A stretch of DNA of 61,603 nucleotides, filler included, from Basidioascus undulatus (taxonomy: Eukaryota): the NCBI GenBank assembly GCA_000826855.1. It is 6 parts of 6 records of this genome, joined end to end, with 100 filler letters (N's around TTAATTAATTAA, not from the genome) between each part and the next. Parts side by side here need not be neighbours in the genome. Positions count along the whole stretch, not along the records: positions 20,597 to 30,787 come from JTLS01001166.1; 5 more parts are not named here. One strand, written 5' to 3'. The translations under genes and the position numbers were made by a program. Below are positions 10,200 to 51,425 of this stretch, one piece after another. Under the pieces are notes generated by a model, which saw only the letters and a list, made by a program, of their open reading frames with translations, had not been told where the DNA came from and did no database searches. Each line of letters begins with the position of its first letter. Within the stretch, counting starts at the first letter, position 1.

Positions 10200-10299
10200 N
10201 NNNNNNNNNNNNNNNNNNNNNNNNNNNNNNNNNNNNNNNNNNNTTAATTAATTAANNNNNNNNNNNNNNNNNNNNNNNNNNNNNNNNNNNNNNNNNNNN
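10200..10299. other. Artificial contig spacer (N-TTAATTAATTAA-N)
   Basis: 100-nt spacer with stops in all six frames. The same spacer recurs at 20497-20596, 30788-30887, 41047-41146 and 51326-51425. Confidence 0.98.
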
Positions 10300-17477: not shown

Positions 17478-17996
17478 GGCGAGCGAGCGAGCGAAGATGA
17501 TGGGTTGGGCGAGCAGCGAGGAAGCCGAGGAAGACGCAGCGAGCAGGGGTGCCCGTCCCGCTGGTGTGTTTCTGTATGGTAACGTTTGTGGAGTTGCATT
17601 GGATTGAGTGGGTTGAAAAGAGGAAAAAGGGAGGTGGGAAAGAAGAATGAGCGAGGCAGGCGGGCAGGCAGGTAGAGTACGCAGTTGAGTCGCCGGCGGG
17701 CTGGCTTTTGAGCACTTGTTCTGCTGCTGTCTGGCAGGCGGGCGACAAAAAAACAACCATTCTTATGCCATAGGATTGTTTTTCCCCCTGGAGCAAAGGC
17801 TGTGGCTCGAGCATGAAGGTGCAGGTGCCAACCGGCTGAGATCCGAGGACAATTCGGAGAGAAGACGCTGGCTTGGTACACTATATTATCAAAGGCATTT
17901 CATTCCTCCCTCCCCTTCTTTACTTTCTGGTTCTATTCTTCTATTCTTCCTCCCCCTCCAGCTTCCGCTCCCCCCGTCCCAGCCTCCCCTCATCGC

Positions 17997-18580
17997 TCAC
18001 CGAACCTCGAACCCCCCAAATCTGCTCCCTAAGATCTTCTGCGCTTCCTCGGGGCTCACCTCCTCCTCCCGTCCGACGCGCACCTCGTCCACCTTTGCGA
18101 GCCGCGGGCCTTGGGCGAGGTGGGATTTACTGCACCCCATGGCCATGCAGGTTCAGCGTCGAAGAGACGAGCTGGAATGGGCAAGGAAGGGAGTCTACAA
18201 GGTTTCTATAGCTTGTTTTTGGCCTGCGGAAGTATCCGAAGAGTGTCCGAGGTAAGGTGGACGAGAACGGGGGTAGGAGGGAAAGGGCAGGAGTGGGGAT
18301 ACTCACCGACCGCCGTCCCCTCAACATGTCCCGCCCGGTCGTTCTTGACCCACCCGCGGAGACTAAGCTCACGCGCCTTGCGCTGCGTAAAGTCACGGAA
18401 CGAGACGCCCTGGCCCCCCTCCCCTCAGCCCACTGCCCCTCCTCCCCCAGGCCGATAGCGGAGCGCGATGAGGTCATACCTGCACGAGACCGAAGACTGC
18501 TCGGGGGTTGTCAGCCGTGAGGGAAGGACAGAAGGGGGAGCGAAGGGTATGGGACCTTTGTATTCGAGTAGGAAAGGCAT
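17997..18580 (-). CDS. Acylphosphatase (five short exons)
   Basis: Spliced product MPFLLEYKVFGLVQGVSFRDFTQRKARELSLRGWVKNDRAGHVEGTAVGQKQAIETFKSHLAQGPRLAKVDEV...FEVR*. It carries the VxGxVQGVxFR and GWVxN signatures. Confidence 0.9.
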
Positions 18581-18882
18581 GGGGGTGGATTGGTTGGTGT
18601 GCAGATGGGAGAGGAGGCGATGGTAGTCGTGTGAAAGAGTGGACGGGAGAAGGCGTGAGATGTTTGGCGCTCAAGTGGAGGCGGTCCCTGCCTCCACACG
18701 CAGAAACGGGCGAGCGGGAGGACGCGCCGGGAACGCGACTTGTCCAGGTTCAATTTCGTTGCCCTCGTTCACGGCATTGCCTATTGGGACACTCAGCCGA
18801 ATTCCAACAAATTCAAGCCTACCAGAGAAGCACATTCGAATCCACACCTACGCCGTTCAATCAGACGGGCCCACAAGCGGCC

Positions 18883-20496
18883 ATGCCACCCTCACCGTCC
18901 AAGTCGCCTCCCTCCCCACCCGCCGCCGCGTCCACATCCACATCCACCACCACCTCCGCATCCACCTCTACCTCTTCCAGTAAGCCCGGCCCCGAAGCGT
19001 CCCTCTTGCACCGTCTAGCGGGCCCGAGCTCAGGCAAGGCGGGGCTGGGGAAGAATATCGTGCGTCCTTTGGTCCTTTGAGAGGGTTTGGGGGGGCAGGA
19101 GTTGGGATGTGGACTGGGTGGGGGGTGCTGAGCGTCGGTGGACGGGATGGGGGTAGGACGAGATTAATAGAATTATACATGATGCTTCGAAGGTGCGTTC
19201 TCCTCTTCCTCTTTTGAAACCCCGTGCTGATGCTTGATGGTGATGGTAGGGCGGAGCGTTCTATGCCGTGCGTCCCTGCTCTCCCCCTCCACAACCTCAC
19301 AGTCAACGCTGATGCGGCTGGGCACCGGCGGATAGAACGAAGTCAAACGGGACGAAGAGCTCACGCGCAAGATTGACAAGCTCCTTGCGCGGAAGGAGGG
19401 GCTCTTCGCCGCGCAGAGCCCGCAGGACACACGGGCGATTGAGGGCAAGGTGGACGGGATGGTTCGTCGTCCTTCTCCTTCTCCCGTATCCTTCGTCGCT
19501 TTGGCCCTGGGTTGGTGGGGATTACTAATAGTGGATGGGTGGATGTGGGATGGGGATGGGACAGATGACGGAGCTTGAAGCGGGCAGGGACCTGACGCAG
19601 ACTATTGTGCATTGCGATTTGGACATGTGCGTGGCGCTCTCGCTTGCGCTCTCTACCGGAGAGAAAAGGCAGGCTGATGGAATGAGGAGGTGCGAAACAG
19701 GTTCTATGGCGCTGTTGAGTTGCTCGACAACCCTTCTCTGGCGGGGAAGCCATTCGGGGTGGGCGGGGTACGTTACTTTCCCCACTGAACGCCCCTAATT
19801 CCCTCCCATCCATCCATCCCTGAATTCCTTCAGATCCTACTGTTCCGGCGCTAACGTGCCCTTGATTTAACTCGCAGGGGGTCCTCACAACCGCCTCCTA
19901 CGAAGCGCGCGCCTTCGGCGTGCGGAGCGGGATGCCCAGTGCGTCTCTCCCCCCCTGTCTCCCCCCCCTTCCTCCTCTCTGCTCCCTCTTCCCTCCTTCC
20001 TGTTCTCAAAGTTCCCCTCGATCTCGAGCTCTTGGTTGTGGTGTGCTGAGATGTTGTGGATGCTCAATCAGCCTTCATCGCCAAAAAGCTCTGCCCCGAT
20101 TTCCTCTGGGTGCCGATGCGCATGGGGCGGTACGTGGAGAAGGTGCGTTTTCTCGTCTCATCCTCCGCTCCTTTCTACTTCCCATCCGCTCCCACCTCGT
20201 TCAGTCTCGCACTTCCCCTGTTTGAGCGACTGCTAATCAACCCTTTGGAATATGATAGTCGCGGGAGGTCATGACCATGTCCGTTCATTCTTTGCGGAAT
20301 GGAAGAGGAGAAGGGAGGCTGATGAGACTGATGACCGTTGAACGGGGAACCAGTTTCAAGCGCTACGACGAGAACTTGATGATTGGGTCGTTGGACGAGG
20401 CGTACCTCAAGTGCGTTGCGTCTTCTTCACCTTCCCTCTCCCCTGCCTCTCCCCATCTCCTCTCCCCTCCCTCCTCCCGCCTTCTGCTCCCGCCCT
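18883..20496 (+). CDS. POLK: DNA polymerase kappa (DinB/Y-family), 3' end cut by contig end
   Basis: LAGPSSGKAGL and DEINRIIHDASKG (N-clasp), IVHCDLDMFYGAVE, VLTTASYEARAFGVRSGMP, FIAKKLCP, SLDEAYL. Confidence 0.95.
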
Positions 20497-20596
20497 NNNN
20501 NNNNNNNNNNNNNNNNNNNNNNNNNNNNNNNNNNNNNNNNTTAATTAATTAANNNNNNNNNNNNNNNNNNNNNNNNNNNNNNNNNNNNNNNNNNNN

Positions 20597-21018
20597 CACC
20601 TCCCCCTCCCTCGAGCTCTATGGCGAAGGCGAGGACGAAGACGAAGACGACGAGTCCGACTGGGTGTCCACGTCCTCGACCGCCTCGCCGTCGTTCCACC
20701 CGCCCACGGTCCCCCGCAACGCAGCCTACGCCGCCCCACACCAGGTCTACTCCGAGCTCGTCCTCCCTGCCGAGGACCCCGCCAGCGCGGACACCGTGCG
20801 CGGGCCATTTGCCGAGGAGGTGCGCGGCGAGCTCGGGTACAGGATGGTCGCGCGCGAGACGGCCCTGGGCGTCACGGGGGTCATGATCGATGGGGAGAGG
20901 GCGGTCGTCGAGGTGAGTGCGCTTTGGCTTCTTCAGGGTGTGCGCGAGACGCTGATTTTTGGGATCCTTGCGCGGCACACAGACGAGGGACGGGGTGTTC
21001 AGGGTCCTCGTGTTCTGA
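20597..21018 (+). CDS. C-terminal fragment of a hypothetical protein (resembles ends of basidiomycete F-box proteins)
   Basis: Coding-like exon with an intron at 20913-~20982, ending GVMIDGERAVVE-TRDGVFRVLVF*. Confidence 0.5.
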
Positions 21019-21502
21019 GCGCTGGGCACTGGGCGTGATGGATCACGTCCAGACGGATTTCCTACGGTTACTAAATTGCTTCGAGGATCCGTTTTTTCTC
21101 GCATCTCAGCACTGCTGCGTGACTACACTTGGCAGGCCACTCTCGTCCAGTCCGACTGCTCTCTGCGGTGCAGACCGTCCTGTAACCATTTTCGCTCACG
21201 TCGACTGAATTTACATTCAGAAAATCCTTTTCCAGTGCGCCATGTCTAGTTGCATTGCTGAATCAAACCTGCTCGGCATGCGGGCTTGCTCGCGCGTCGA
21301 ACGTGCCCGATGTGCCCCTGCGCGGCTCGTCTTGCTCGCTGCTCGCATGCTCGCTCCTCTCCTCCCGAACGTCACACTTTAGAGCTTTCGCACATTCGCG
21401 AGCTCGCTCCGACCCAGCGCTGGCTTATCTACTCGCTCGCGTCGAGGCCGTGCATTTCGGTCGCATTTCGATTCCAGCACCTCGGGCGCTGTGGGCAGGC
21501 TC

Positions 21503-21511
21503 ATATAAAAA
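21503..21511 (+). promoter_or_regulatory. TATA box upstream of the secreted repeat protein
   Basis: ATATAAAAA about 120 bp upstream of ATG 21624. Confidence 0.55.
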
Positions 21512-21623
21512 GCACGACTGGCGCTCTGCTTCTTGGTCCTCCCATTATCGCAACTCCAACCGCGCGGCCCTTGATCCTCTTCAATCTCCACTAATTCAGA
21601 ACATCCTCGCCGCACACTCCACC

Positions 21624-22453
21624 ATGCGATTCGCTCTCGTCTTGGCAGTTGCCGTCGCTATGCTCTCCGCGCCGATCGTGCGGGGTGCACCTCTCCCGTT
21701 CGTGTGCGCATACTATAATCGTTTCCCTTGCTGAACCTAGACTGACACCCACACCGCTTGATGCGCAGCCTATCTCCCTACTTCAAAGGCTCGATGCTCG
21801 CGTCTCGCAGTCCTTTCGACCCTTACTCGTACGTCTGTTGTCGCCCGCGCGAGAATGTACTTGAAGAAACTGATAAGATCGTCGCTCTCAGGACCGAAGG
21901 GATTGTGTCGATCGTTGCGCTGATCGACTCGCTCGAGAACGGGTACTACCGTGACGAGGAGGAGCGGTACTGCAGCTCGTCCGTATAACCTTTTGTCCCG
22001 CTCTCACCTTAAGAAGGAACTGACGCCCAAATTCCCGCACCTCAGTGTGGACGGCCGTCTTCTCGATCTTGATGTCCTGGTGTACGTCCTAGGGGACTAC
22101 TGCCACAAAGACGACCAAGGCCGGTACTGGACGAAGTGCGTACCCCTCTCTTTCTCCACAGCCTGGATTCGTTTTGACTTGTAACTGCTCTTCTTCCCAA
22201 ACGAAGGCACAACGAGCTTCTTGACCTCGGTATCATCGTGGACGTCCTCGAAGGGCGGTATGTCCGGCGTGGAGACGGTAGCTACTGGTGCGAGTACGTC
22301 GGCCCTTCCCTCTCGGTCAGGCTCGCATAGTCGACAGAGTTACAACTGACTGATTTCTCGTTCGTCGCGATGAGGGAGCGCGGCTTGGTACTCGACGCCG
22401 ACTTGGTCGCACTCATCGATCTCCTCCCGTCTTCCCGCGTTGCTCGGTTCTGA
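21624..22453 (+). CDS. Small secreted tandem-repeat protein (~158 aa, 6 exons), family not recognised
   Basis: Signal peptide MRFALVLAVAVAMLSAPIVRGAP. Exons 21624-21697, 21769-21828, 21892-21978, 22046-22135, 22207-22293 and 22375-22453 join in one open frame. Repeat consensus is roughly LLDLxxLVDVLxGxYxRxDxGRYW. Confidence 0.75.
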
Positions 22454-23149
22454 GTGGCAGGCTCCTGTGTTCCACCTGTTAGTTGACGTAGCTGTCGGAG
22501 CTGGGCCGCACTCGCATGCGACACCCTATACCCCGACCCAAGTTTGTTTCCTCCAGTTTTTCATATGTATACTTTAATCCTAATGCATTAATAGGCCGTC
22601 CGCCCCATGTTAGTGTGATACAATCCGACGCTCCCCGAAACGACGGACTGGATACAGCAATGGCTGTTCACAGGATTTAGGTAAACAGTATGGTGATTCC
22701 TGGAAGCCGTAGCTAAGAGAAAAAAATACATATAGATTCTCATATTTCATCTTACAGAATTTGGTCATCTCACCTCCCCTTATGAACGTGCATGAACACT
22801 GAACCCCAGCGGCGACAGCGATGCTCTCGGCCATCCGCTCCGTTGTCCCACTCTGCAGTACCTATCCGGCACGAGGAAAAAAAGAAAATGTCTGACTTCT
22901 ACATATCTGTGATTAAGAAGGCTCCACAAAGAAGCCAAGGAAAAGAGGACGCTGGTTTCATGGGGCAGTCTCCCGAGTCGCCGTTGCCCAATGGACGCAC
23001 CATCGCACCGGCCTCCCACGGACAAAAGCTGTGTTGACGTACGCTGTAGAAAAAGCTATATAAAAACTCGCCCTGTGAGATATATCATCTTTGCTCCAAC
23101 GAAACGTCTTTCACACCACCCACTTTTCAAACTCCATGATCTCAATACC

Positions 23150-23539
23150 ATGCAGCTCACTGCCCTTTTCCTTTCGGCGCTCTCCATCGTCGGACTCGTC
23201 TCTGCTGCGGCCCTGCCTTCGGTTGAAGGTCTCACATGCACGAGTGGCATCCTGGGTATGTCTCCCTTCTTTCGCTCCGGCAGTGTAGATTCCTGACCGG
23301 CATTCGTACGCATCAATCAGAGAAGCACGCATGGAGCATCGGCTGCGCCAGAAACGACGACAACAACATCAGCCCCTGCCTCCATTCCGCGAAGGCCAGT
23401 GCCTCAGCAACGGCAGCCTGCGTTTCGGACAGAATGCCAACTGCAACGCGGCGCAGTACCGCCTCTGCTTCACATCGAGTCAGCCACCCAAACAACTAAC
23501 AACAGGATTGGACGGAACCACGCACTGCCTCGTTCTGAG
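23150..23539 (+). pseudogene. Small secreted cysteine-rich protein, frameshifted
   Basis: TATA (CTATATAAAAA) at ~23056; signal peptide MQLTALFLSALSIVGLVSAAALP; intron 23256-23320; then EKHAWSIGCARNDDNNISPCLHS and, after a 1-nt shift near 23390, EGQCLSNGSLRFGQNANCNAAQ. The 3' end is uncertain. Confidence 0.6.
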
Positions 23540-23569
23540 CGTCCCGAGTAGAATGTCAGCTTCTCGCCT

Positions 23570-26500
23570 TCACGCCCAAGGGACTAGCACGGACCTTGAA
23601 GATCTCGAGTACTCTCCGATGATAGGCGTTGTAAGCAGGCTGTAGCTCGGGCGGAGAATGGTAGTTACTTCTTGGCCTCGACTTCCGGGTCGAACGGAAC
23701 TCCGTGGATGCGCAGGGCTGTTAGGAACAGAAAATGAGTCGATGGGCGCAGAGCAAAGGGGGGGATCGGCGCACTCTTCAGCTCGGTCTGGGCAAAACGC
23801 GAAATTTGTCCGACATTTGAACGCATCAGGCCATGAAGCTTGTGGAACGACCAATGCATACGTCGTTGGCGATACGCTCTAGAGCTCTAGAGCATTGGTG
23901 AATGCTCGACAGGGCATCCAGGTCTTGAGTAGCTCGTCGATGAGGTTCTGCGTCGGATGGAACGGAACGCCGTTCTGCAAGCAGAAGGAGAGCCTCTCGT
24001 GAAGTTGATTAAAGTTCTGCAAGATCCTGATGTGAGCAGCTCGTTAACTTGTTACGCATGCGGCTGCCTTACGGAAGCGACGAGCTCGCTGTTCTCCAGC
24101 ACACCGCTGATCAGGTTGCGGATCTCGTGGCTCGTGACGTCTGTGAAGAGGCACTGGTATCAGCTTCTACAAGGCAAACGATGCAAAGCAAGAAGCATGC
24201 GCATATAAATCAGGTGCTCTTGCGAACGCTTCTGCTCCTCGACCTGTCTCCGGCGTTCCTCGGCCTCCTCAGCGCGTCTGCGCAGGTCCGCCTCCTTGAT
24301 CGCCAACCCCTTCTGCTCGGCCACCTCCAGAGCTTTCCGGTCCGAGACGTCGAGCAAAGAGCCCAGCCTTTCGTTCAGTGAGCCAGATAAGCACGGGAAG
24401 GGGTGGCCGAATAGGGAAGATACTCGCATGATGTCGAGGTCCGGCATGACCTCGATTTGTGCCCAACACCAGCGCCCATCTAAACGGCAGAAAGATGAGC
24501 TCGTTCATTCTTTCAAATTCATGGACTGATTACGCACCCGCAAGTCGGAACTCGCGTACGCTACCTTGTTGAGACTGGATCGCCGAGTTCCACATGCCCA
24601 CTGTCAAGCAACAAACTTATCAGAGGACTTCAAACGCCCAATAAGACTCGGCATCGTCTCAATCGGAACGTGTCGGTCTTCTTCATGAAAGTAGGCCGGC
24701 CAGTCGTCGGGCTTCATCTCGGGAGGTGCTCCGATAACCTGAAGGAGCGATTGAGCACCGCCGCGTTCTCGTGAAGCAGGTAATGAAATCTTACGCAGAA
24801 GTGGGCTTCGTTCCGGGTAAATGACGTGCCCGGTCGAGAGCTGAGCGCGGAAAATACCGATGGAAGACGCGTCGGTCACTGTGGTGGAGTGCACGGGTCA
24901 AAAGCTGGCCTTCGTCCGCTTGCAAAGTTTCATACGCACTCATGCGATACTCCAGCGTCCACTCGTTGAGCGATTTTTCTAATTCTATGCGCTTCTTGCC
25001 AAATGAGACTGCGTCACATCGACCAAACCGTCACTGATCGAGGGACAGCAAGTGTTGAAAGCCGAAGTGACAAACTGTGGGTATACGCCCGAGCAATAAG
25101 CTCGCGGGTAGAGAAGGCTGTAGAGTTGTTAAGTTGTTAGCTAAGGAGACCAATGATGAGAATAAGGTCAACATACGCTTGGACAAGTAGTCGTCGGCTC
25201 CCGCCAACAGACCATCGACGCTGCTGTCGGCGCCCGCTCGAGCAGTGAGGACTGCAATTGCGTGTCAGTACTGCCGAGGCTTGGCCCGAATAGCTGGACT
25301 GCTCACGAATGATGGGGAGAAAGTCGAGGTCGGGACGAGACCGCAGGGCGGCAACGAGTTCGAAGCCGGTCAGCTTCGGCGTCATGACGTCCGAGATGAT
25401 GAGGTTCGGTCTTCGGCTGATGGCGATATCGACTGTGCGGGTTCGCTGTGTGTAAGCTTATGCCGATAGCGTGACGCGAACTTTTCGTTGCGTACGGCCT
25501 TCTTGACCGTCTTCGCTTCGACGACCTTGTAGAATGGCCCGATGACAGCGCCTATTCCGTGCCGTCCGAGGTCAAGATGTGGTCAAGAAATCCTTCAACA
25601 GTCAAGTACATACGAAGGTATGAGCGCATGTCGGCGTTGTCGTCCACGATCAAGACCAGATCGCTATGGACCCAGTCACGTCAGCGCACTGCTGCGAACG
25701 GCTCAATCCCACAAACTCACGTCTTTTCGAATCCGAGTGAGTCTGGCAAATGGCACGTCAGCCTGTAACTCCACTTTTAAACGCTTTCCGGGCAAAGGCG
25801 TACGCTCCCAGGCGAGTTCCGAGGAAGACCCCCACGAGCTCTCCGAAGACGAGATCAACTCCGGCTCGTCCGCGCCCACCCAGCGCTACGAGCCCATAGA
25901 GCCTCAACATAGTTCACTTTGCTGGTGCTGGCGGAAGGGTAGCTTTACCTTCGCCTCGGCGACGATGCCTTGCACGAAGCTGTTGTCGCGCTGCGCGAAG
26001 TCCTGGTTGACCATTGCGCAACTATCAGTAAGGCGCATTCCGATCAGCGGTGAAGACGAATCTCAATCGAGAACGTGTCCGCCGTGAGGCCGCGCATGGC
26101 AATATCCGGCGGCACCATGGTCAGTCGGACCGCGAACGAAGCTATCGCGCCGCACTGTATCCGGGATCAGAACACCATACAACCTTCCAGAGCGAGAAGA
26201 CGCTCACAGCCGTGCTTGCCCGAGCCGTCCCATGACGAGTCAAAGTTGCTCGTGACCTTGATCGTGCCGCCGAGGAGGCGGATGAGCTCCTGCGTGAACG
26301 AGAGGCTGATGCCGCTGCCCTCGTACGACCGCCCGACAGAGTCCACGACGCGGTGGAAGCGGTCGAAGATCTTTGGGAGCTCGGAGGGCGGGATGCCGAT
26401 GCCCGTGTCGGACACGTTGAAGATGATGTCTTGGTCGACCAGGGTAAGGGACACTGTGAGGCGTGTACATGTTAAAACTTCAACATCAAGAGTCGAGAAA

Positions 26501-28720
26501 AGCGTGAGCGCCTCCTAGCAAGATATACACCTTGAACGGGTTGCCGAGAAGGTTGAACATTGCACAACGCACAGCGTTAGCTGTCTTTCGGCATGGACAT
26601 AGAACAGAAGGTAGGTCGAACCGATCTTCTTCCAACAGTCCGCGCCGAGCCAAGCTATCGTTGGTCGGTTGTTCGCGGCTCGTCGCATTCCACCACATAC
26701 TTGATCTTGCCGCTCTGTATCGCTCAAACTCACAAGTGAGCTTTGTGCATGCCCAGCATTGCGGACTGATCCCCACCTCGATAGCGGAACGGCTGTGGGA
26801 ATGAAGATTGATATGAGCACGAGTTCGTATAGGACTACGCCAGCATCATACACACAAGAGCGCCGCGAGATCCGAAGTGAATGAGAAGATCGGCAATGGG
26901 CGGAGGTTAGCCTTCATGCGTCCGGCCTGTCCGCCCCCAAGGTTCAGCATTATGGGCTTTCCCGAAAAAGCGGCCGGCGACGCACCTCCACGCTTGAGAA
27001 GTCCAACAGGGAGTTGACGAGTCTGTGAAGGCGGTTCGCATTGCGCTGGACGAGGCGCAGCCTGTCGCGAGCAGCTTTCGGGAGGTCCGGGTCGCCCAGG
27101 GAGTTCTCCAGCGGGCCCTTGATGAGCGTGAGGGGCGTGCTGGGTTCCCGAAGCGCGAGGTAAGCTACAAAAGATGTTCATGGAAGAGTAGAGGGAAGAC
27201 AGCGACGTACCGAAGCTCGTGCGAGACGTCGGAGAAGAACGCAGTCTTGGACCGGTCCAGCGCAGAGAGCTCCTCGGCACGCTTGACGGTGGACTCGTAC
27301 GAGAGCGTTGCAGCCAAGCTAGACGCGAGCTCTGCATCCATCTCAGCAAGCCCGAATCAGTTCTCATTCCCGACTCTCTCAGGCACAAACCTTCCCCAAC
27401 TCAGGGAGAGTCAGCACGTCCAACCACGTCCTCGTGTCGGCGTCGTACGGCCTGATGGGGAGGACGAGCAAGCCTTGGGCGACGCCCTCGCAGTTCTCGC
27501 TGGCATGGATGGGGAGCACGACCACGCTCCGGAGCTTCGCGGTGTCCGCGAACCCGCGCGGCTCGAACCCCTTGACGAGCACACCTAGCGAGTGTCGCAC
27601 GACGAGCTCGTGCGTGGACGTGCACTGCGAGAGGCCGAAGGGGTCGAAGAACGCTTGGAGCGGGGAGGTCTGCGTCGGGGTGGTGGGACTGAGGGGGGAG
27701 TCGTAGTGCGTATTAGTCTCCGCTTGTGCCTTTCACAGGCAGGAGGAGAAGCAACGCACTGTCACGAAGGAATCCCTATCGTGCCCTGCAACTTGAGGCC
27801 CATCCTTCCATCGCCCGTGCCGCCCAGCTCAAGCCTTGACGAACTCGTGCTGGGCGTCGTCGCTGGGCGTCCCAGCCGTGGTCGTCCCCTCCATGCTGGC
27901 ATTGAGCTGCGCGCCGGCGGTGGTGCACGCTGTAGAGGAGCGCGAACGGGATGTCCTTGTCGTTGATAGAGAGACCTTTGAGGCTGTTCAAGCAGGGGCG
28001 GACAGTCATTCTTGAACTGCTGAGAATGCCATGATGAGAATGGAACGAAGGCGCACACGCTGCTGTAGTACTCCGCCATGGTATGCGCGAGCGCGCTCCG
28101 GCCGAGTTGGCGGAGGGTGAGGAGCCGACGCTCGCCGATGATGCGCTGGGTGTCTCGACGTCTGCTCGGTGTATCAGGCATCAGCCCGCTGTCGCACGGA
28201 AACGTTCGGGGATGGCATAAGCACAACGCACCTAGGTTGAACGCGGCCCCCATTCGCCCGTCGTTGTAGTAGATGGGCGACCATGCCCAACTGTGGTACG
28301 TCTCCCTGCACAAAACAAGACCTGTGCGTCAGATCACAAAGCTTAGGTAGTGTATCAGCAAGCTGGAGCTTGAGACGTACTCCACTTCGCCATTTCGAGT
28401 CATGCTCTACCCAGGGGAAAGGAAAAATTAGTATCCCCGGTAGCCGGTATATGCCTGAGTATCACGCACAAAAGCAAGTCTGTGGACAAAGACTTACCAA
28501 CCAATTCCATGTACCTCAAGACCTTGTCCAACAAGGGGCCGAGGTAATCCTGGAAATTAAAGGGTTGGCTGAGCCAGCTTGACCGGTGGAAAGGTAGTAA
28601 GAGACGTACCCAAAGCTCGGACCACCCGACTGCACCGCTCTTGCCGAACATCCACGGATGTCTGCAGGCCGAGACCCTGTTGTGCAGGTAGCGCACAATC
28701 AACATACGCTCTCATAAGTT
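23570..28720 (-). pseudogene. Dual hybrid histidine kinase (sensor/GAF-HisKA-HATPase-REC-PAS-HisKA), appears degraded
   Basis: HPWMFGKSGAVGWSELW, ETYHSWAWSPIY, H-box KTAFFSDVSHELR, N-box MFNLLGN, G-boxes VSDTGIGIP and EGSGISL, REC VLIVDDNADMR and IISDVMTPKLTG and GADDYL, second H-box VTSHEIRN. The pieces do not join cleanly and the second kinase fades out. Confidence 0.8.
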
Positions 28721-30787: not shown

Positions 30788-30887
30788 NNNNNNNNNNNNN
30801 NNNNNNNNNNNNNNNNNNNNNNNNNNNNNNNTTAATTAATTAANNNNNNNNNNNNNNNNNNNNNNNNNNNNNNNNNNNNNNNNNNNN

Positions 30888-38635: not shown

Positions 38636-41146
38636 GTGATGACCCAGTTTCCACCTTAAAAAGGTTCATGCGCTTTGGGTCATTTGTTCTCTTCTGGCTT
38701 GATATAATTTGATGTTACATTCCGATCACCTCTTCGCTTTTTCCCTCTATCGCTGTCATGTGCTGTGACGGCAAAGGCAGCCTTGTTCAACCTGCCAACT
38801 TCATTGGCTGCTTTTCTGATACACCTCCGTCGTCACTCCCAGGGTGAATGAAACATCCCCTCTTCAAGTCACTACAGTTGACCTGTGATTCAACAAGACA
38901 GGCTCAAGCAGCACTGCAGCTCCCTTCAAGACATGCATCGTGGGCATGGCAGTGAAACTTCCAGTGCAACGATGCCCTTGATTCTTTACCCTCCATGGCA
39001 TCATGCTCCCCTTCAGCAGGCTTATAGTGCAAGACACCACTTCCTCGCATGTTGCCTACAGCTTCAACAACTTGTTGCTTCGCCGCCAGATTAAAATTTC
39101 ATAGGAAAAGTGAATTTAAAAATTAAGAATATACAGTTTTCTCGACTTAGGTTAGGTAAAAAAATAGGCGGCAATACCCCCTAAAAATGCCCTGACCAGA
39201 CTCCTTTGGCTGGCCAGGGGGCGCCGGCGACCCATCCAACCTGCTGCACACTCTGGAAGGTGCCTGGGGCACAAGTAGCCTGATCAGGCAGGTCCAGTAA
39301 AGGGCGGAAACTAAGTTGTTTGCCAACCTGCAAAAGGAGGGCATGACCTTATCGCCACTCCGGTTTAGGGCCGGCAGGTGCTTTTTTACCCCGCAACGCC
39401 AAACTACGACTGCCGGAATAGCACCGTTTCATTCAAACAAATCACTGCATATCCTATGTCGAGCGCTGTATTGTCTGAGCCAATGTTGTTCCATTCAGAT
39501 TTATCTATAATGAGGAAATCAATGGTCTTAAGTAGGGCTTGCCACACCGGCGTCCTGAACAACGACAGTAAAGTGGAAAAGCTAGAGCTTTCTCTTGCTA
39601 TCGATGCCTCCAGTATCGCCTGCGCAGATGCAGCAAACAACATCCCCATTTTATTTGGTATCAGCTGGAAAGACTAAGCATGAGCTGTTTGAGCTGCTAG
39701 CCATGCCATGCGTTGACAGCTGCTGCCTTCCGATGCCAACGGTCCACGCCCTCTGCTGCCAAATTCTCTTGCATAGGATCCCTCAAACACCGACAGCCTC
39801 ATCAGAGCGCTTGGTCATTAAACATATAGACACATTATGACAGGGGAAGTAGATGCACCAACACTGGCTCCTCCTCTTCATACACAGAAGCCCCATCATC
39901 CCCTTCATCACATCACATCCCTCTGCCAACCGCTCTTGAATTTCGATCCACCACCAACCGACATCGGGGTCTCCTACCTCCATGTCATAGCGCCACACAT
40001 CCCGAACTCCCCACTGAAGCACCTCTACATTGCCGTGTATGATTCTGACGCAGTACTGCGTCTACCCCTCACAGCACAGCGAGCACACCAAAGTCAGAGT
40101 TGCATGGAGCACCCAGTGCTGATGGCGCTGTAGGCTTGTGGTACACAGGCGTCAGGTGTGAATGAGGAGATTGAGACAGATGGACCAGCTGCGCTTAAGC
40201 TCTCGAAGCCCAGGGTGGCTCCCGTCCCTCTTCTTGCCAGGAAACAGTTCGAGTCTGAACCGCACTCACAGTCCAGTGTGGAGCATACAAAACACATGAA
40301 AAGCACCTGCAATACAATGACGAGAGGGGTGAGATGGAAAGTTGGCAGTCATTCGTGTAGATGGCGAAGCGATGTATGGGTGTCTATCAATACATCCAAC
40401 TCTTCTCTCCCCCGCCTCACACGCTCCTTGATCTCCGCTTTCCCATCTCGAAGTTGTCCCGTACAAATGTGGTGGGGGGAAAGGATGTTTCTCGGGTAGA
40501 CTCTGGTTTTGGGGCGGGCTGCTAGGCAGGATGAGGTGCAGTCTGTTGAGGCCTGCTGCCAGGGGTGAGGGTCTGCCCCGCCGGCGTTTACTGCCGTGCT
40601 TTGCTAACACGGTACGAGTGTCCGCTAGCCTGCGAGTTACAGATATCGCGCAGTTCCCACGAGAGTTTGCCGGCCCTCGACCCCCCCCTGGGGCACTCCT
40701 TTTGCACAATGTGCCATAGAGTCCAAAAACGATAATTTGAGAGGCAGCAACATCTCCCAGGACCGATGAGAGGGCGCGGCACATAACTTGGAACTGCACC
40801 GGCAGTGCGGCGATCCGATGCAACGCCGACCCAGCGCGCACCCGCTTGGGCGTCGTCAGCGTGTCAGCGACGATGCGTAAGGTCTACTTGCCTCAGAAAA
40901 TGCACAGAGGCATGTCAGGGTTAGACTCAATCGCTCAGCCTTCGCCCATCGCAAGCGGGCACGTCTCATCCCATCCCCATCTTCATCTTCATCACGCAAA
41001 CCCCTCCCCTCCTCAAACCTCCTCCCTCCCCTCCTAATCCGCCAAGNNNNNNNNNNNNNNNNNNNNNNNNNNNNNNNNNNNNNNNNNNNNTTAATTAATT
41101 AANNNNNNNNNNNNNNNNNNNNNNNNNNNNNNNNNNNNNNNNNNNN

Positions 41147-44740: not shown

Positions 44741-45343
44741 CGCAGAGCCTTTTAGTATGGGGCTGAGATGGAGAGCTCGCGATGCGGACGTGGGGGCGAA
44801 AGAGCGCGGGCGTTGTTAGCTGCCGTGGATGATGACAGTTGAAGGGCAAGGGCGGCGCGCGCACGGCCGGCCTTGAATACCGCGTGCCCGTGCAGCAAGT
44901 TGTCGCTACGCTGGTGAGCACTGGTTGTCTTTGAGGATCACATAGAGTTTTATGCACTAAATGGTATAGCTCACCTGACCGTCGAGCAATCCCTCCTTGA
45001 GGTCCGGGCGTTCCAGCAGACACCATGCAGAGCAACGACCTCTTTGACCTCAGTTCCCTTGCCCTGTCGGAAAGAGTGGTTGAATCAACGTGTTGTCACC
45101 GCTTGCATATACTTTCGCGGCGATGAAGGATCCGACGGTGGTAGCGCGCCCGCGAAGAAAAACGAAGGGTGGCTGGAAGACGCCTTTGCGGCAACGCAGC
45201 ACAGCGGCTCGGGAGATCAAACGAAAGGTGTATGCGATGATGCGTGCGTGCGGACGTACGAAATGACCCCAAAGCAACCGAAAGATCGACCAGCGAACCA
45301 AGCCAGCGTCCGTCTATCTAAGCCTCCCTCCATCCTCCCTTCG

Positions 45344-46847
45344 TCACCCCACCCTCCTCTCCACCGACGCCGCGACCTCCTCGACCCTCCTCTCCTGTGG
45401 CCCCATAAGGAGCCTCCTGACCCACCCGCCCTTGGCGAACTCCCTTCCATACTGCCCGTGCAGATGGACCGCAAACACCGCGTCCAGCCGGCCGCGAAGC
45501 TCGGCCCACCGGCGCTCGTCGTACGCCGGGTCGCGCACGAATGGGTCCGGCAGGCGGTTGTCGAGCCGACACGAGCGTCCGTCGGTGAAGCAGTAGGGGA
45601 GAATCTTGAACGGCTCGATCGGCGGCGAGGCGGACAGGAGGCGGCGGTAGGTCTTGTGGTACAGGAGCGCACCCCACTCGGTCGTCCCCGCCCGCGGGGG
45701 AGGGGAGGAGAGGATGATGTGCAGCATCTCGCAGATGTACGGCGAGTGTTGCCGGAAGTGCATGAGCGCGCCGTTGAGAGGGGAGTAGGGCTTGTCTGGG
45801 GGAGGGGAAGGGAAGGTTTGAGTCCCGACTGCGATCCGACCGACCCAAGAGGAGGAAAGGAAACGGAGAGGACGCACCGTAGCAGTCCCACTGCGTGACA
45901 AACTCGTGCTCCAGGAGCGGCTGGAGGTCGCGCGTGAGAATGGTGTCCATGTCGACCCACACGCCTCCATACGTCCAAAGCAACAGCAGCCTAACGAGGT
46001 CGCCGTCGACCCACGCGCGGCGGTCGCGCACGCGCCGGAGCGCCGAGCCCTGGAGGGCCGTGCCCTTCGCGAGCTCGTCGATGTCGATCGTGCGCGCGCG
46101 GAAGTTAGCGGGGAACCTCGCGAAAAAGGGTGCGAGGCGTGGGTCGCCGCTCAGGTCGACATCGGACCAGAGGATGAGAGTCGCATGCGCGAGGTCCTGC
46201 GTCGCAAAGAACGAGTTGAGGAGTGCGACCTCGCGCTCTCCGAGCGCGCGCAAGTCCGCGCGCCAGTAGATGTGGAACGTGGTGTCCCGCCGGGGTTCGT
46301 GCGGGAGGGGCTGGATCGTGCCCGCGAGGCCGTAGCAGTCGAAGCCAAACTTGAGCAAAATGCCCGCCTGGACGTCGTGGAACTTTGGCTGGGCGTTGAG
46401 AGAGATGTTGTAGAGCGGGGAGACGCGCGCAGGGCTGAAGCACCCGCCGAGGGGCGCCACGTCTTGGATCTCGGTCTTGATCCACCCACGCCGGTACGCC
46501 GCGAGCTCGACGTGCAGCTCGTAGCGCCAGACGAAGGCCAGCGCCGCGAGGGCGAGGAGGGCCAGCGCGTACTGCACGAGCGGCGGCGGGCGGTAGCGCC
46601 TGAGCGCACGCAAGAGCGTCGTGCGCTGGGAGAAGAGGGAGAAGGCGCGGCGGCTGCGCGGCCGGCCCGAGCGGTAGAGCGGCGAGTCCGGGCTGTGCTC
46701 GCGGTCTGGGGCCGGGGAGAAGAGGACGGCGGTGGATGAGGCGGAGGGGGAGGGCGAGGGCCGGATGAAGGGCAGGCTGGTCGTGTAGAGGGGGAGGCGC
46801 GGGCGGTGCACATCTTGGTGGTCGTGCGGATGGGGGTTGAAGGACAT
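45344..46847 (-). CDS. Glycosyltransferase family 32 (DXD, OCH1-like superfamily), type II membrane protein
   Basis: N-terminal TM segment, FHIYW, DLVRLLLLWTYGGVWVDMD, LNGALM; one intron near 45815-45877. Confidence 0.92.
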
Positions 46848-47531
46848 CGAGCGGGCAGCCACCACTGGGTCTCAGAGCGGCGGCGAGGGGAGACTGGGGG
46901 AGCTGGAGGAGGGGGGCGAGGAAAAGTGTAGACTGCGACTCGGATTCGGCGGCGGGCAGGATGGGGCTCGTGAATGGTCGTACGACGCGATCATAAGATA
47001 ACGGAGCAAACAGCAGAATAGCGGGTATGGGCCTGAAAATCAGCGCCGGGGAGGAGGAGGAGGAGGAGGAGAAGCAGGCGAGGGGGGCCAGCGAGCAGCC
47101 AGCCGGAAAGAGAAGGCAGCGAGAGTGACGAGAGAAGCGAACCGTCACGACGCAGGTGGCTCGCCGACAGCAGGACCCACCCCCAGGGTGCTCGACGCAC
47201 TGACCGCAGTCACTGCGCTGTCCCCCATCTGCAGCGGATTTTCGCAGACTGAAAACACCGACATTTAACAATGGTGTGTAGATTCGATCGGGGGCACACA
47301 AGACTGTGCCACGGCCTCAGAGCACGCGAGTCGGGAACAGCCGCGGCAACTTGCCTTCAAAGCCTTCTCTTTCTGCCAAAGCACCATACCGACATCTCAA
47401 GCACACGAGCAACGAAACAAGCAGCAATCGCAGAGGATGACCATAGAAGCACATGAACGCGGCAAGCCTCAACATAGAACCTCCATCGTACAGCCCGGAC
47501 CGTCGAACGGTCCCACAAGCGCAAGGCACGC

Positions 47532-50977: not shown

Positions 50978-51425
50978 GCGCACGAATCCTTCTTGCGCGC
51001 TTGGGGTCTCGGGTGGGGTGTGTGTGTGTGCAGGTGGCCTGCTACTGAGCGGCGGGACCGGGCGGGGAGAAAGGGGTTGCCTGTACGCTTATCTTCTCCC
51101 CGGGGGAACCATGCGACGCTCGTTCTTTTCTCACCGCGCCTTCTCTCCCTCTGCTCCTGTTTCTGCCCCGCCGCCCTCTGCCTCGATCAACCTCATCTCG
51201 CGCATGCAGTCCTCGCCTCTTTCTCTCACCGGCCTCGTTCTCGCTAGGTTCACCACACACACACATGCCCTCCCGTCTTTCTTTCCCTGCTTCGTTGCCC
51301 TTCTTTCCCTTCCTTCGGACTGACCNNNNNNNNNNNNNNNNNNNNNNNNNNNNNNNNNNNNNNNNNNNNTTAATTAATTAANNNNNNNNNNNNNNNNNNN
51401 NNNNNNNNNNNNNNNNNNNNNNNNN

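Follow-up and report, generated by a model that had tools for sequence, protein, structure and literature searches.

The multi-exon locus at positions 21624 to 22453 on the plus strand of the window, which is the whole 61,603-nucleotide stretch of joined Basidioascus undulatus contigs analyzed here (assembly GCA_000826855.1), is probably a real, transcribed, lineage-specific gene. It would encode a small acidic secreted protein consisting of an array of ∼30-residue units that arose by duplication of an intron-plus-exon module and fold into one compact extracellular domain. We hold this reading as a whole with reasonable, although far from complete, confidence; its protein product is probably an orphan, a small secreted repeat protein specific to its fungal lineage and encoded by a neatly organized gene. 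What an earlier reading of this DNA, made from the sequence alone (the sequence-only reading), had observed at the locus is confirmed by the current analysis, and its interpretation is partly supported.

The gene model consists of six exons (Table 1), and its spliced translation gives a product of 160 amino acids. All five introns (65, 63, 67, 71, and 81 nt) have GT..AG ends, all five are in phase 2, and the internal exons E2 to E5 are 60, 87, 90, and 87 nt long. The coordinates, exon sizes, and uniform intron phase listed in the sequence-only reading were reproduced exactly. Also as proposed there, removal of E3, E4, or E5 preserves the reading frame; skipping of E2 is likewise frame-neutral and results in a protein of 140 amino acids. 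Intron 2 has no in-frame stop, and its retention would yield 181 amino acids. Retention of intron 5 leads, after 11 codons of read-through, to a TAG stop at 22328 to 22330 and a 146-residue protein with three units. The competing GTGTGC donor at 21702, which had been suspected of producing an early stop, does so, leaving a product of 66 amino acids.

Table 1. Features of the predicted gene and its flanks (positions along the window)
Feature	Positions	Strand	Description
TATA-box-like element (TATA[AT]A)	21504-21511	+	∼120 nt 5′ of the start codon
Exon 1 (E1)	21624-21703	+	80 nt; ATG, signal-peptide-like N terminus, first mature residues
Intron 1	21704-21768	+	65 nt, phase 2; donor GTGCGC, branch-like CTGAC, CAG acceptor
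Exon 2 (E2)	21769-21828	+	60 nt; linker rich in Pro, Ser, and aromatic residues, no repeat unit
Intron 2	21829-21891	+	63 nt, phase 2; donor GTACGT, branch AACTGAT, CAG acceptor
Exon 3 (E3)	21892-21978	+	87 nt; repeat unit 1 (U1)
Intron 3	21979-22045	+	67 nt, phase 2; donor GTCCGT, branch AACTGAC, CAG acceptor
Exon 4 (E4)	22046-22135	+	90 nt; repeat unit 2 (U2)
Intron 4	22136-22206	+	71 nt, phase 2; donor GTGCGT, AAG acceptor; spliced out in a public contig
Exon 5 (E5)	22207-22293	+	87 nt; repeat unit 3 (U3)
Intron 5	22294-22374	+	81 nt, phase 2; donor GTACGT, branch AACTGAC, weak GAG acceptor; kept in the sole covering contig
Exon 6 (E6)	22375-22453	+	79 nt; truncated repeat unit 4 (U4), TGA stop; translated only with intron 5 spliced
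3′ UTR	22454-22513	+	Extent given by the reach of the X3 contig

There is no ATG between the TATA-box-like element and position 21624, and the start codon lies in the context CCACC-ATG. In a home-made hydrophobicity screen, used here in place of a trained predictor to call secretion, the N terminus encoded at 21624 ranked first, with a score of 3.13, when the ATGs of both strands were compared across the window, so that the signal peptide of the sequence-only reading has a counterpart in a signal-peptide-like sequence. The screen returned four matches in the window, and the ATGs at 21624 and 23150 were the only two at which a strong signal-like start is accompanied by a TATA box. Cleavage would probably occur after residue 21, and the product is probably secreted.

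The second of these ATGs marks another small gene on the plus strand, at 23150 to 23645, ∼700 nt downstream. It has a signal-like start, a TATA box at position −93, a first exon at 23150 to 23255, and an intron at 23256 to 23320 (GTATGT...CTGAC...CAG), followed by two protein-like frames; no Pfam match was found for it. On the other side, a plus-strand gene at 17689 to 21040, whose 3′ end lies ∼600 nt before 21624, encodes an impB/mucB/samB (IMS, Y-family DNA polymerase) domain at 19866 to 20222 (E = 2.3e-05). This gene is interrupted by the N run at 20497 to 20596, a join between parts whose two sides need not adjoin in the genome. Farther downstream, the minus strand carries a histidine kinase gene with an HATPase_c domain at 26170 to 26514 (E = 2.3e-16) and an HisKA domain at 26953 to 27177 (E = 1.8e-08). 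The N runs of the window (10200 to 10299, 20497 to 20596, 30788 to 30887, 41047 to 41146, and 51326 to 51425) recur approximately every 10.3 kb as pairs of 44 N 12 bases apart, 440 N in total, and are not biological.

An open spliced frame is in itself no evidence for a gene of this kind, because under loose rules (donor GTNNG, introns of 45 to 120 nt, and at most 6 introns) the ATG at 21624 gives rise to 25,181 alternative paths that keep the frame over 120 codons or more. The argument for the gene is carried by six independent lines: codon usage, intron type, transcript-like evidence, the gene start, the N terminus, and the repeats. Scored with a codon table trained on 1,516 codons from Pfam-supported open reading frames (ORFs) elsewhere in the window, the whole model reached +56.5 bits in frame versus −33.3 and −57.8 bits out of frame, a value attained by 0.5% of 2,866 random 483-nt stretches. 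The in-frame signal is contributed largely by the repeat exons: E3 scored +17.2 bits (versus −13.6 and −10.0 in the other frames), E4 +13.3, E5 +15.8, and E6 +5.3, with E1 (+1.4) and E2 (+1.5) both neutral. The tail read through from intron 5 scored +0.7 bits. Intron 2 scored +5.3 bits in frame and could therefore be coding. The G+C content at third codon positions is 0.73 for the model and 0.86 for E3 alone, to be compared with 0.62 to 0.84 in the reference ORFs and a G+C content of 0.52 in the introns.

The introns themselves resemble those of the surrounding DNA, which belongs to an intron-rich basidiomycete-like fungus. A strict intron signature (GTNCGT, CTRAY, and YAG) was counted 32 times across the window versus 6.9 ± 2.5 times (maximum, 13) in 40 shuffled versions, with lengths of 54 to 89 nt. 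The loose pattern GTNNGY, CTRAY, and YAG is barely enriched (90 versus 70.7 ± 10.1 in shuffles; maximum, 89), and the branch-like word ACTGAY taken by itself shows no enrichment in the window (44 versus 55.7 ± 6.6). The commonest donor hexamer among the intron-like matches is GTGCGT (22 of 90). The donors of the gene (GTGCGC, GTACGT, GTCCGT, GTGCGT, and GTACGT) and its intron lengths of 63 to 81 nt fit this dominant intron type, and intron 3 matches the enriched signature. The acceptors of intron 4 (AAG) and intron 5 (GAG) are less usual, GAG being the least favored acceptor type. Splicing of introns 1 to 3 and of intron 5 is inferred; for intron 2, it would follow only from the signals GTACGT...AACTGAT...CAG and the register of the repeats.

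Transcript-like evidence comes from public sequencing runs, three of which contain DNA of the locus. Two of them (X1 and X2) are of genome type and show no difference from the window. The third (X3), obtained from the sample that also yielded X2, comprises 36,764 contigs with a total of 15.7 Mb; its kind is labeled “DNA?” by guess, not RNA. A single X3 contig of 327 nt joins 22116 to 22135 directly to 22207 to 22513, so that 71 nt with GT..AG ends are absent. The 22135/22207 joint corresponds to intron 4 to the base, whereas X1 and X2 keep this intron. The contig thus covers the last 20 nt of E4 and then E5; its support is a single record with a depth of 3.1 and just 20 nt to the left of the joint. 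The gene is at least partly transcribed. X3 contigs give zero cover over 21300 to 22115, leaving introns 1 to 3 and exons 1 to 3 uncovered, so X3 is uninformative on expression there. An AT-rich stretch at approximately 22550 to 22600 lies past the end of the contig.

The same contig is continuous between 22207 and 22513 and so retains intron 5, which raises the question of what the main product is. If retention were the rule, the gene would be real and would chiefly produce the 146-residue secreted form, in which a short unrelated tail follows three units, and exon 6 would be the decaying relic of a fourth unit in the 3′ UTR. This alternative is unlikely. Besides the continuity of the only contig across the region, it can draw on the GAG acceptor of intron 5, on the stop that cuts U4 inside its hairpin part, and on the read-through stop after only 11 codons. 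However, the donor (GTACGT) and branch site (AACTGAC) of intron 5 follow the consensus, exon 6 is free of stops over 25 codons in the exact phase-2 register and outscores the tail in codon usage, exon 6 resembles unit 1 locally (76/5000 shuffles), and a single contig with a depth of 3.1 may be unprocessed pre-mRNA. Because the frame is kept, the codon-usage score is positive, and there is likeness to unit 1, we read exon 6 as a genuine exon and intron 5 as inefficiently spliced, with the intron-retaining product standing as a rival. No exon-skipped form was seen in the transcript-like data, which consist of this one contig. The sole isoform evidence is intron retention (intron 4 out, intron 5 in) and not exon skipping, and its consequence for the protein would be the loss of U4.

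Each of the exons E3, E4, and E5 encodes one unit of 29 or 30 amino acids, and E6 encodes a truncated one. Within a unit, a segment rich in Leu, Val, Ile, and Asp precedes an aromatic hairpin-like Y-x-R-x-D/E...G-R/S-Y-W motif. Likeness among the units is real but modest. In a shuffle test of local protein alignments, scores at least as high as the observed one were obtained in 2 of 5,000 shuffles for U2-U3, which is clearly significant; for the other pairs, in which the likeness is weak, the counts were 71 (U1-U3), 76 (U1-U4), 162 (U3-U4), 176 (U1-U2), and 450 (U2-U4) of 5,000. The four units are 21 to 46% identical at the protein level and share one invariant column. The DNA of the repeat exons is also alike (0, 1, and 11 of 500 shuffles at or above the observed scores), as are, weakly, introns 3, 4, and 5 (2, 8, and 23 of 500), the latter partly via common splice signals. 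In all three exon pairs, conservation is highest at the second codon position, lower at the first, and lowest at the third.

The alignment of the units is in register with the exon starts. One unit per symmetric phase 2-2 exon, the common register, and the residual likeness of the flanking introns all support growth of the gene by exon duplication, as put forward in the sequence-only reading. Since a single unit occupies each symmetric exon in a common register and the introns are weakly similar, tandem duplication of an intron-plus-exon module appears to be the simplest origin of the array; duplication of a module of ∼155 nt would also explain why the start of every unit falls at a constant position within its exon.

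The repeats could also be leftovers of tandem duplication at the DNA level, free of protein constraint, in a young or dying gene that is transcribed without giving rise to a functional protein. Consistent with such a locus are the absence of a homolog in any of the searches described below, the low transcript depth, the odd number of Cys residues (three) in the mature protein, and the many alternative splice paths. Still, the frame has stayed intact across four duplicated exons despite their divergence to the identity levels given above, conservation follows the order of codon positions 2 > 1 > 3, and every full repeat exon carries 13 to 17 bits of codon signal; neither the start context nor the TATA box nor the signal peptide is disrupted. 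A nonfunctional locus is regarded as distinctly improbable.

The mature protein of the model comprises 139 amino acids with a pI of ∼4.5 (15 Asp and 9 Glu versus 3 Lys and 11 Arg). It is rich in Leu, Val, and Tyr, contains three Cys residues, and has no N-glycosylation sequon. A single unit, modeled with the four-row alignment, was predicted to form a helix (residues 9 to 19) and a small hairpin (residues 20 to 30), with a mean pLDDT of 75 and a pTM of 0.29, a prediction that says nothing on the packing of the units. The sequence-only reading had proposed an alternating Leu/Val-Asp segment paired with a beta-hairpin-like motif: the hairpin was modeled, but the Leu/Val-Asp stretch appeared as a helix and not as a strand in this weak single-unit fold, which gives a weak hint that the stretch may be helical.

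The 160 residues contain no KR and a single dibasic site, the RR at residue 126 inside unit 3, and there is no dibasic site at the unit boundaries, in agreement with the earlier remark that regular Kex2 sites are lacking. This bears on the comparison with the Rep1 peptides of Ustilago maydis, which form amphipathic amyloid fibrils on hyphae (PMC3133707, in the part of the source available), and with the KEX2-processed repeat proteins (KEPs); both are secreted repeat precursors (PMC3133707, PMC9769878, and PMC7329392, each available in part). According to the available part of PMC9769878, the KEP class is defined by KEX2 dibasic sites (KR, sometimes RR) that flank every core. Like Rep1 and the KEPs, the protein described here is made of tandem units and, by prediction, is secreted: it has a signal peptide in our screen and repeated cores (three full and one truncated). 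Unlike those precursors, which have a Kex2 site between all units, it has only the single RR within one unit, and no sequence similarity to Rep1 or the KEPs was found by the unit profile among 1.84 billion representative proteins. The defining cleavage sites being missing, its identification as a KEX2-processed repeat protein or repellent was rejected. A precursor cut in the secretory pathway to one peptide per unit, for which the signal peptide, the similar length of the tandem units, and the precedent of Rep1 and the KEPs might speak, is scarcely credible given one RR in unit 3, no KR, and no site between units.

The search for relatives was negative throughout. Five pieces spanning all six exons matched 0 Pfam families at E values of 10 or less, and stop-to-stop ORFs over the locus matched none either; the unit thus lies outside the described Pfam repeats, the sequence-only reading having named a match to one as grounds for abandoning its proposal. 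The best hit of a PDB profile search had an E value of 0.82, and all 5 matches were short and partial (11 to 24 positions). In the ESM Atlas, the best feature score was 0.86, under the lead level of 0.9. Word-based protein searches gave 26 candidates, none of which scored, for the piece 21770 to 21979 against longer proteins and zero candidates for the piece 21746 to 21985 against proteins of similar length. An exhaustive search with the unit profile against the 1.84 billion representative proteins produced 5 matches at E values of 0.001 or less; they cover 9 to 14 profile positions, multiplied in unrelated repetitive proteins (for example, HEAT-like or translated satellite-like repeats), and were rejected as relatives. 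In metagenome contigs, 599 pattern matches were obtained, of which 0 were confirmed by tblastn.

Within the window, a tblastn search with the spliced protein and a search of 2,131 six-frame ORFs with the unit HMM retrieved the four units themselves only, E6 scoring 32.7 bits by construction. Paralogs with other repeat numbers, which the sequence-only reading had suggested seeking with such an HMM, were found neither here nor among the 1.84 billion representative proteins.

How much this orphan status means can be judged from another gene in the window, a GT32 glycosyltransferase ORF (Gly_transf_sug domain) at 45321 to 46871 on the minus strand. Its best database identities are 42 to 59%, its named matches come from Agaricomycotina (Tulasnella, Calocera, Coniferiporia, and others) and Wallemia, and its own protein is absent. 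The genome belongs to a basidiomycete lineage without a close relative in the protein collections. Because the proteome of this genome and those of close relatives are absent from the databases, the lack of homologs is weak evidence of novelty, and a fast-evolving small secreted protein would be expected to have no match there.

In these respects the protein resembles the fungal small secreted proteins (SSPs), an operational class of proteins of fewer than 300 amino acids with a signal peptide, most of which are products of orphan genes and have no known domain (PMC7105643, in the available part). With 160 amino acids, a signal-like N terminus (secretion being predicted), no known domain, and no detectable relatives, it falls within this class, which is not a family, so that membership says nothing on function. 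Secreted, lineage-specific small repeat effectors include Rsp3 of Ustilago maydis, which shows repeat-length polymorphism (PMC5923269), and MiSSP8 of Laccaria bicolor (10.1101/218131), as described in the available portions of these reports; the likeness to Rsp3 and MiSSP8 is limited to secretion (predicted here) and repeats, and no sequence similarity to them was found. A hydrophobin was also considered and rejected on account of the three Cys residues in the mature protein and the absence of a hydrophobin Pfam match. Hydrophobins have eight conserved cysteines in a characteristic pattern.

With regard to gene architecture, duplication and shuffling of symmetric exons have been described for modular animal proteins. 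Common to those systems and to the gene described here are repeats bounded by introns of the same phase, exon lengths that are multiples of three, and a frame that is kept when units are gained or lost. In contrast to the modular animal proteins, the introns here are in phase 2 and the gene is a tiny fungal one. In the literature searched, with sources available in part, exon duplication in a basidiomycete secreted repeat protein found no match.

The preferred reading, that of a spliced gene for a secreted repeat protein, can be put together as follows. The gene would be transcribed from its TATA promoter and spliced at five phase-2 introns, with inefficient removal of intron 5, and translation would begin at the first ATG. 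The protein would then be directed to the endoplasmic reticulum by its signal peptide, with probable cleavage after residue 21. The array is likely to have grown by tandem duplication of the ∼155-nt module, consisting of one phase-2 intron and one exon with a length divisible by three, and the uniform phase would make each such duplication frame-neutral. Most probably, the units pack together as one small acidic repeat domain outside the cell; this history and this single-domain fold are inferences. Release of the units as separate peptides appears unlikely, there being no processing sites. The usual range of roles for such proteins comprises association with the cell wall or surface and interaction either with a substrate or with a partner organism, none of which is favored here. 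The present results likewise do not speak for the self-assembling surface protein, the wall-binding repeat, or the effector with splicing-tuned repeat number suggested in the sequence-only reading.

A much bolder extension of this reading, which we consider quite improbable, would make the unit the founder of an undescribed ∼30-residue extracellular fold, built from a hydrophobic helix and an aromatic beta-hairpin, in an undersampled branch of the Agaricomycotina. The exon layout would then be used to vary repeat number among paralogs, strains, or splice forms (via skipped exons or a retained intron 2 or 5), tuning a surface or host-interaction property.

For annotation, the locus illustrates that short multi-exon genes are easily missed and that an open spliced frame alone is worthless as evidence. 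The intron pattern led by GTGCGT may serve as a splice model for annotating this genome. A new biological question would be posed only if a function, a family, or regulated variation in repeat number were to emerge. If the model holds, it enlarges by one the set of orphan secreted proteins from a sparsely sampled lineage of basidiomycetes and provides a clean small fungal example of a repeat array grown by intron-plus-exon duplication, its frame protected by uniform intron phase.
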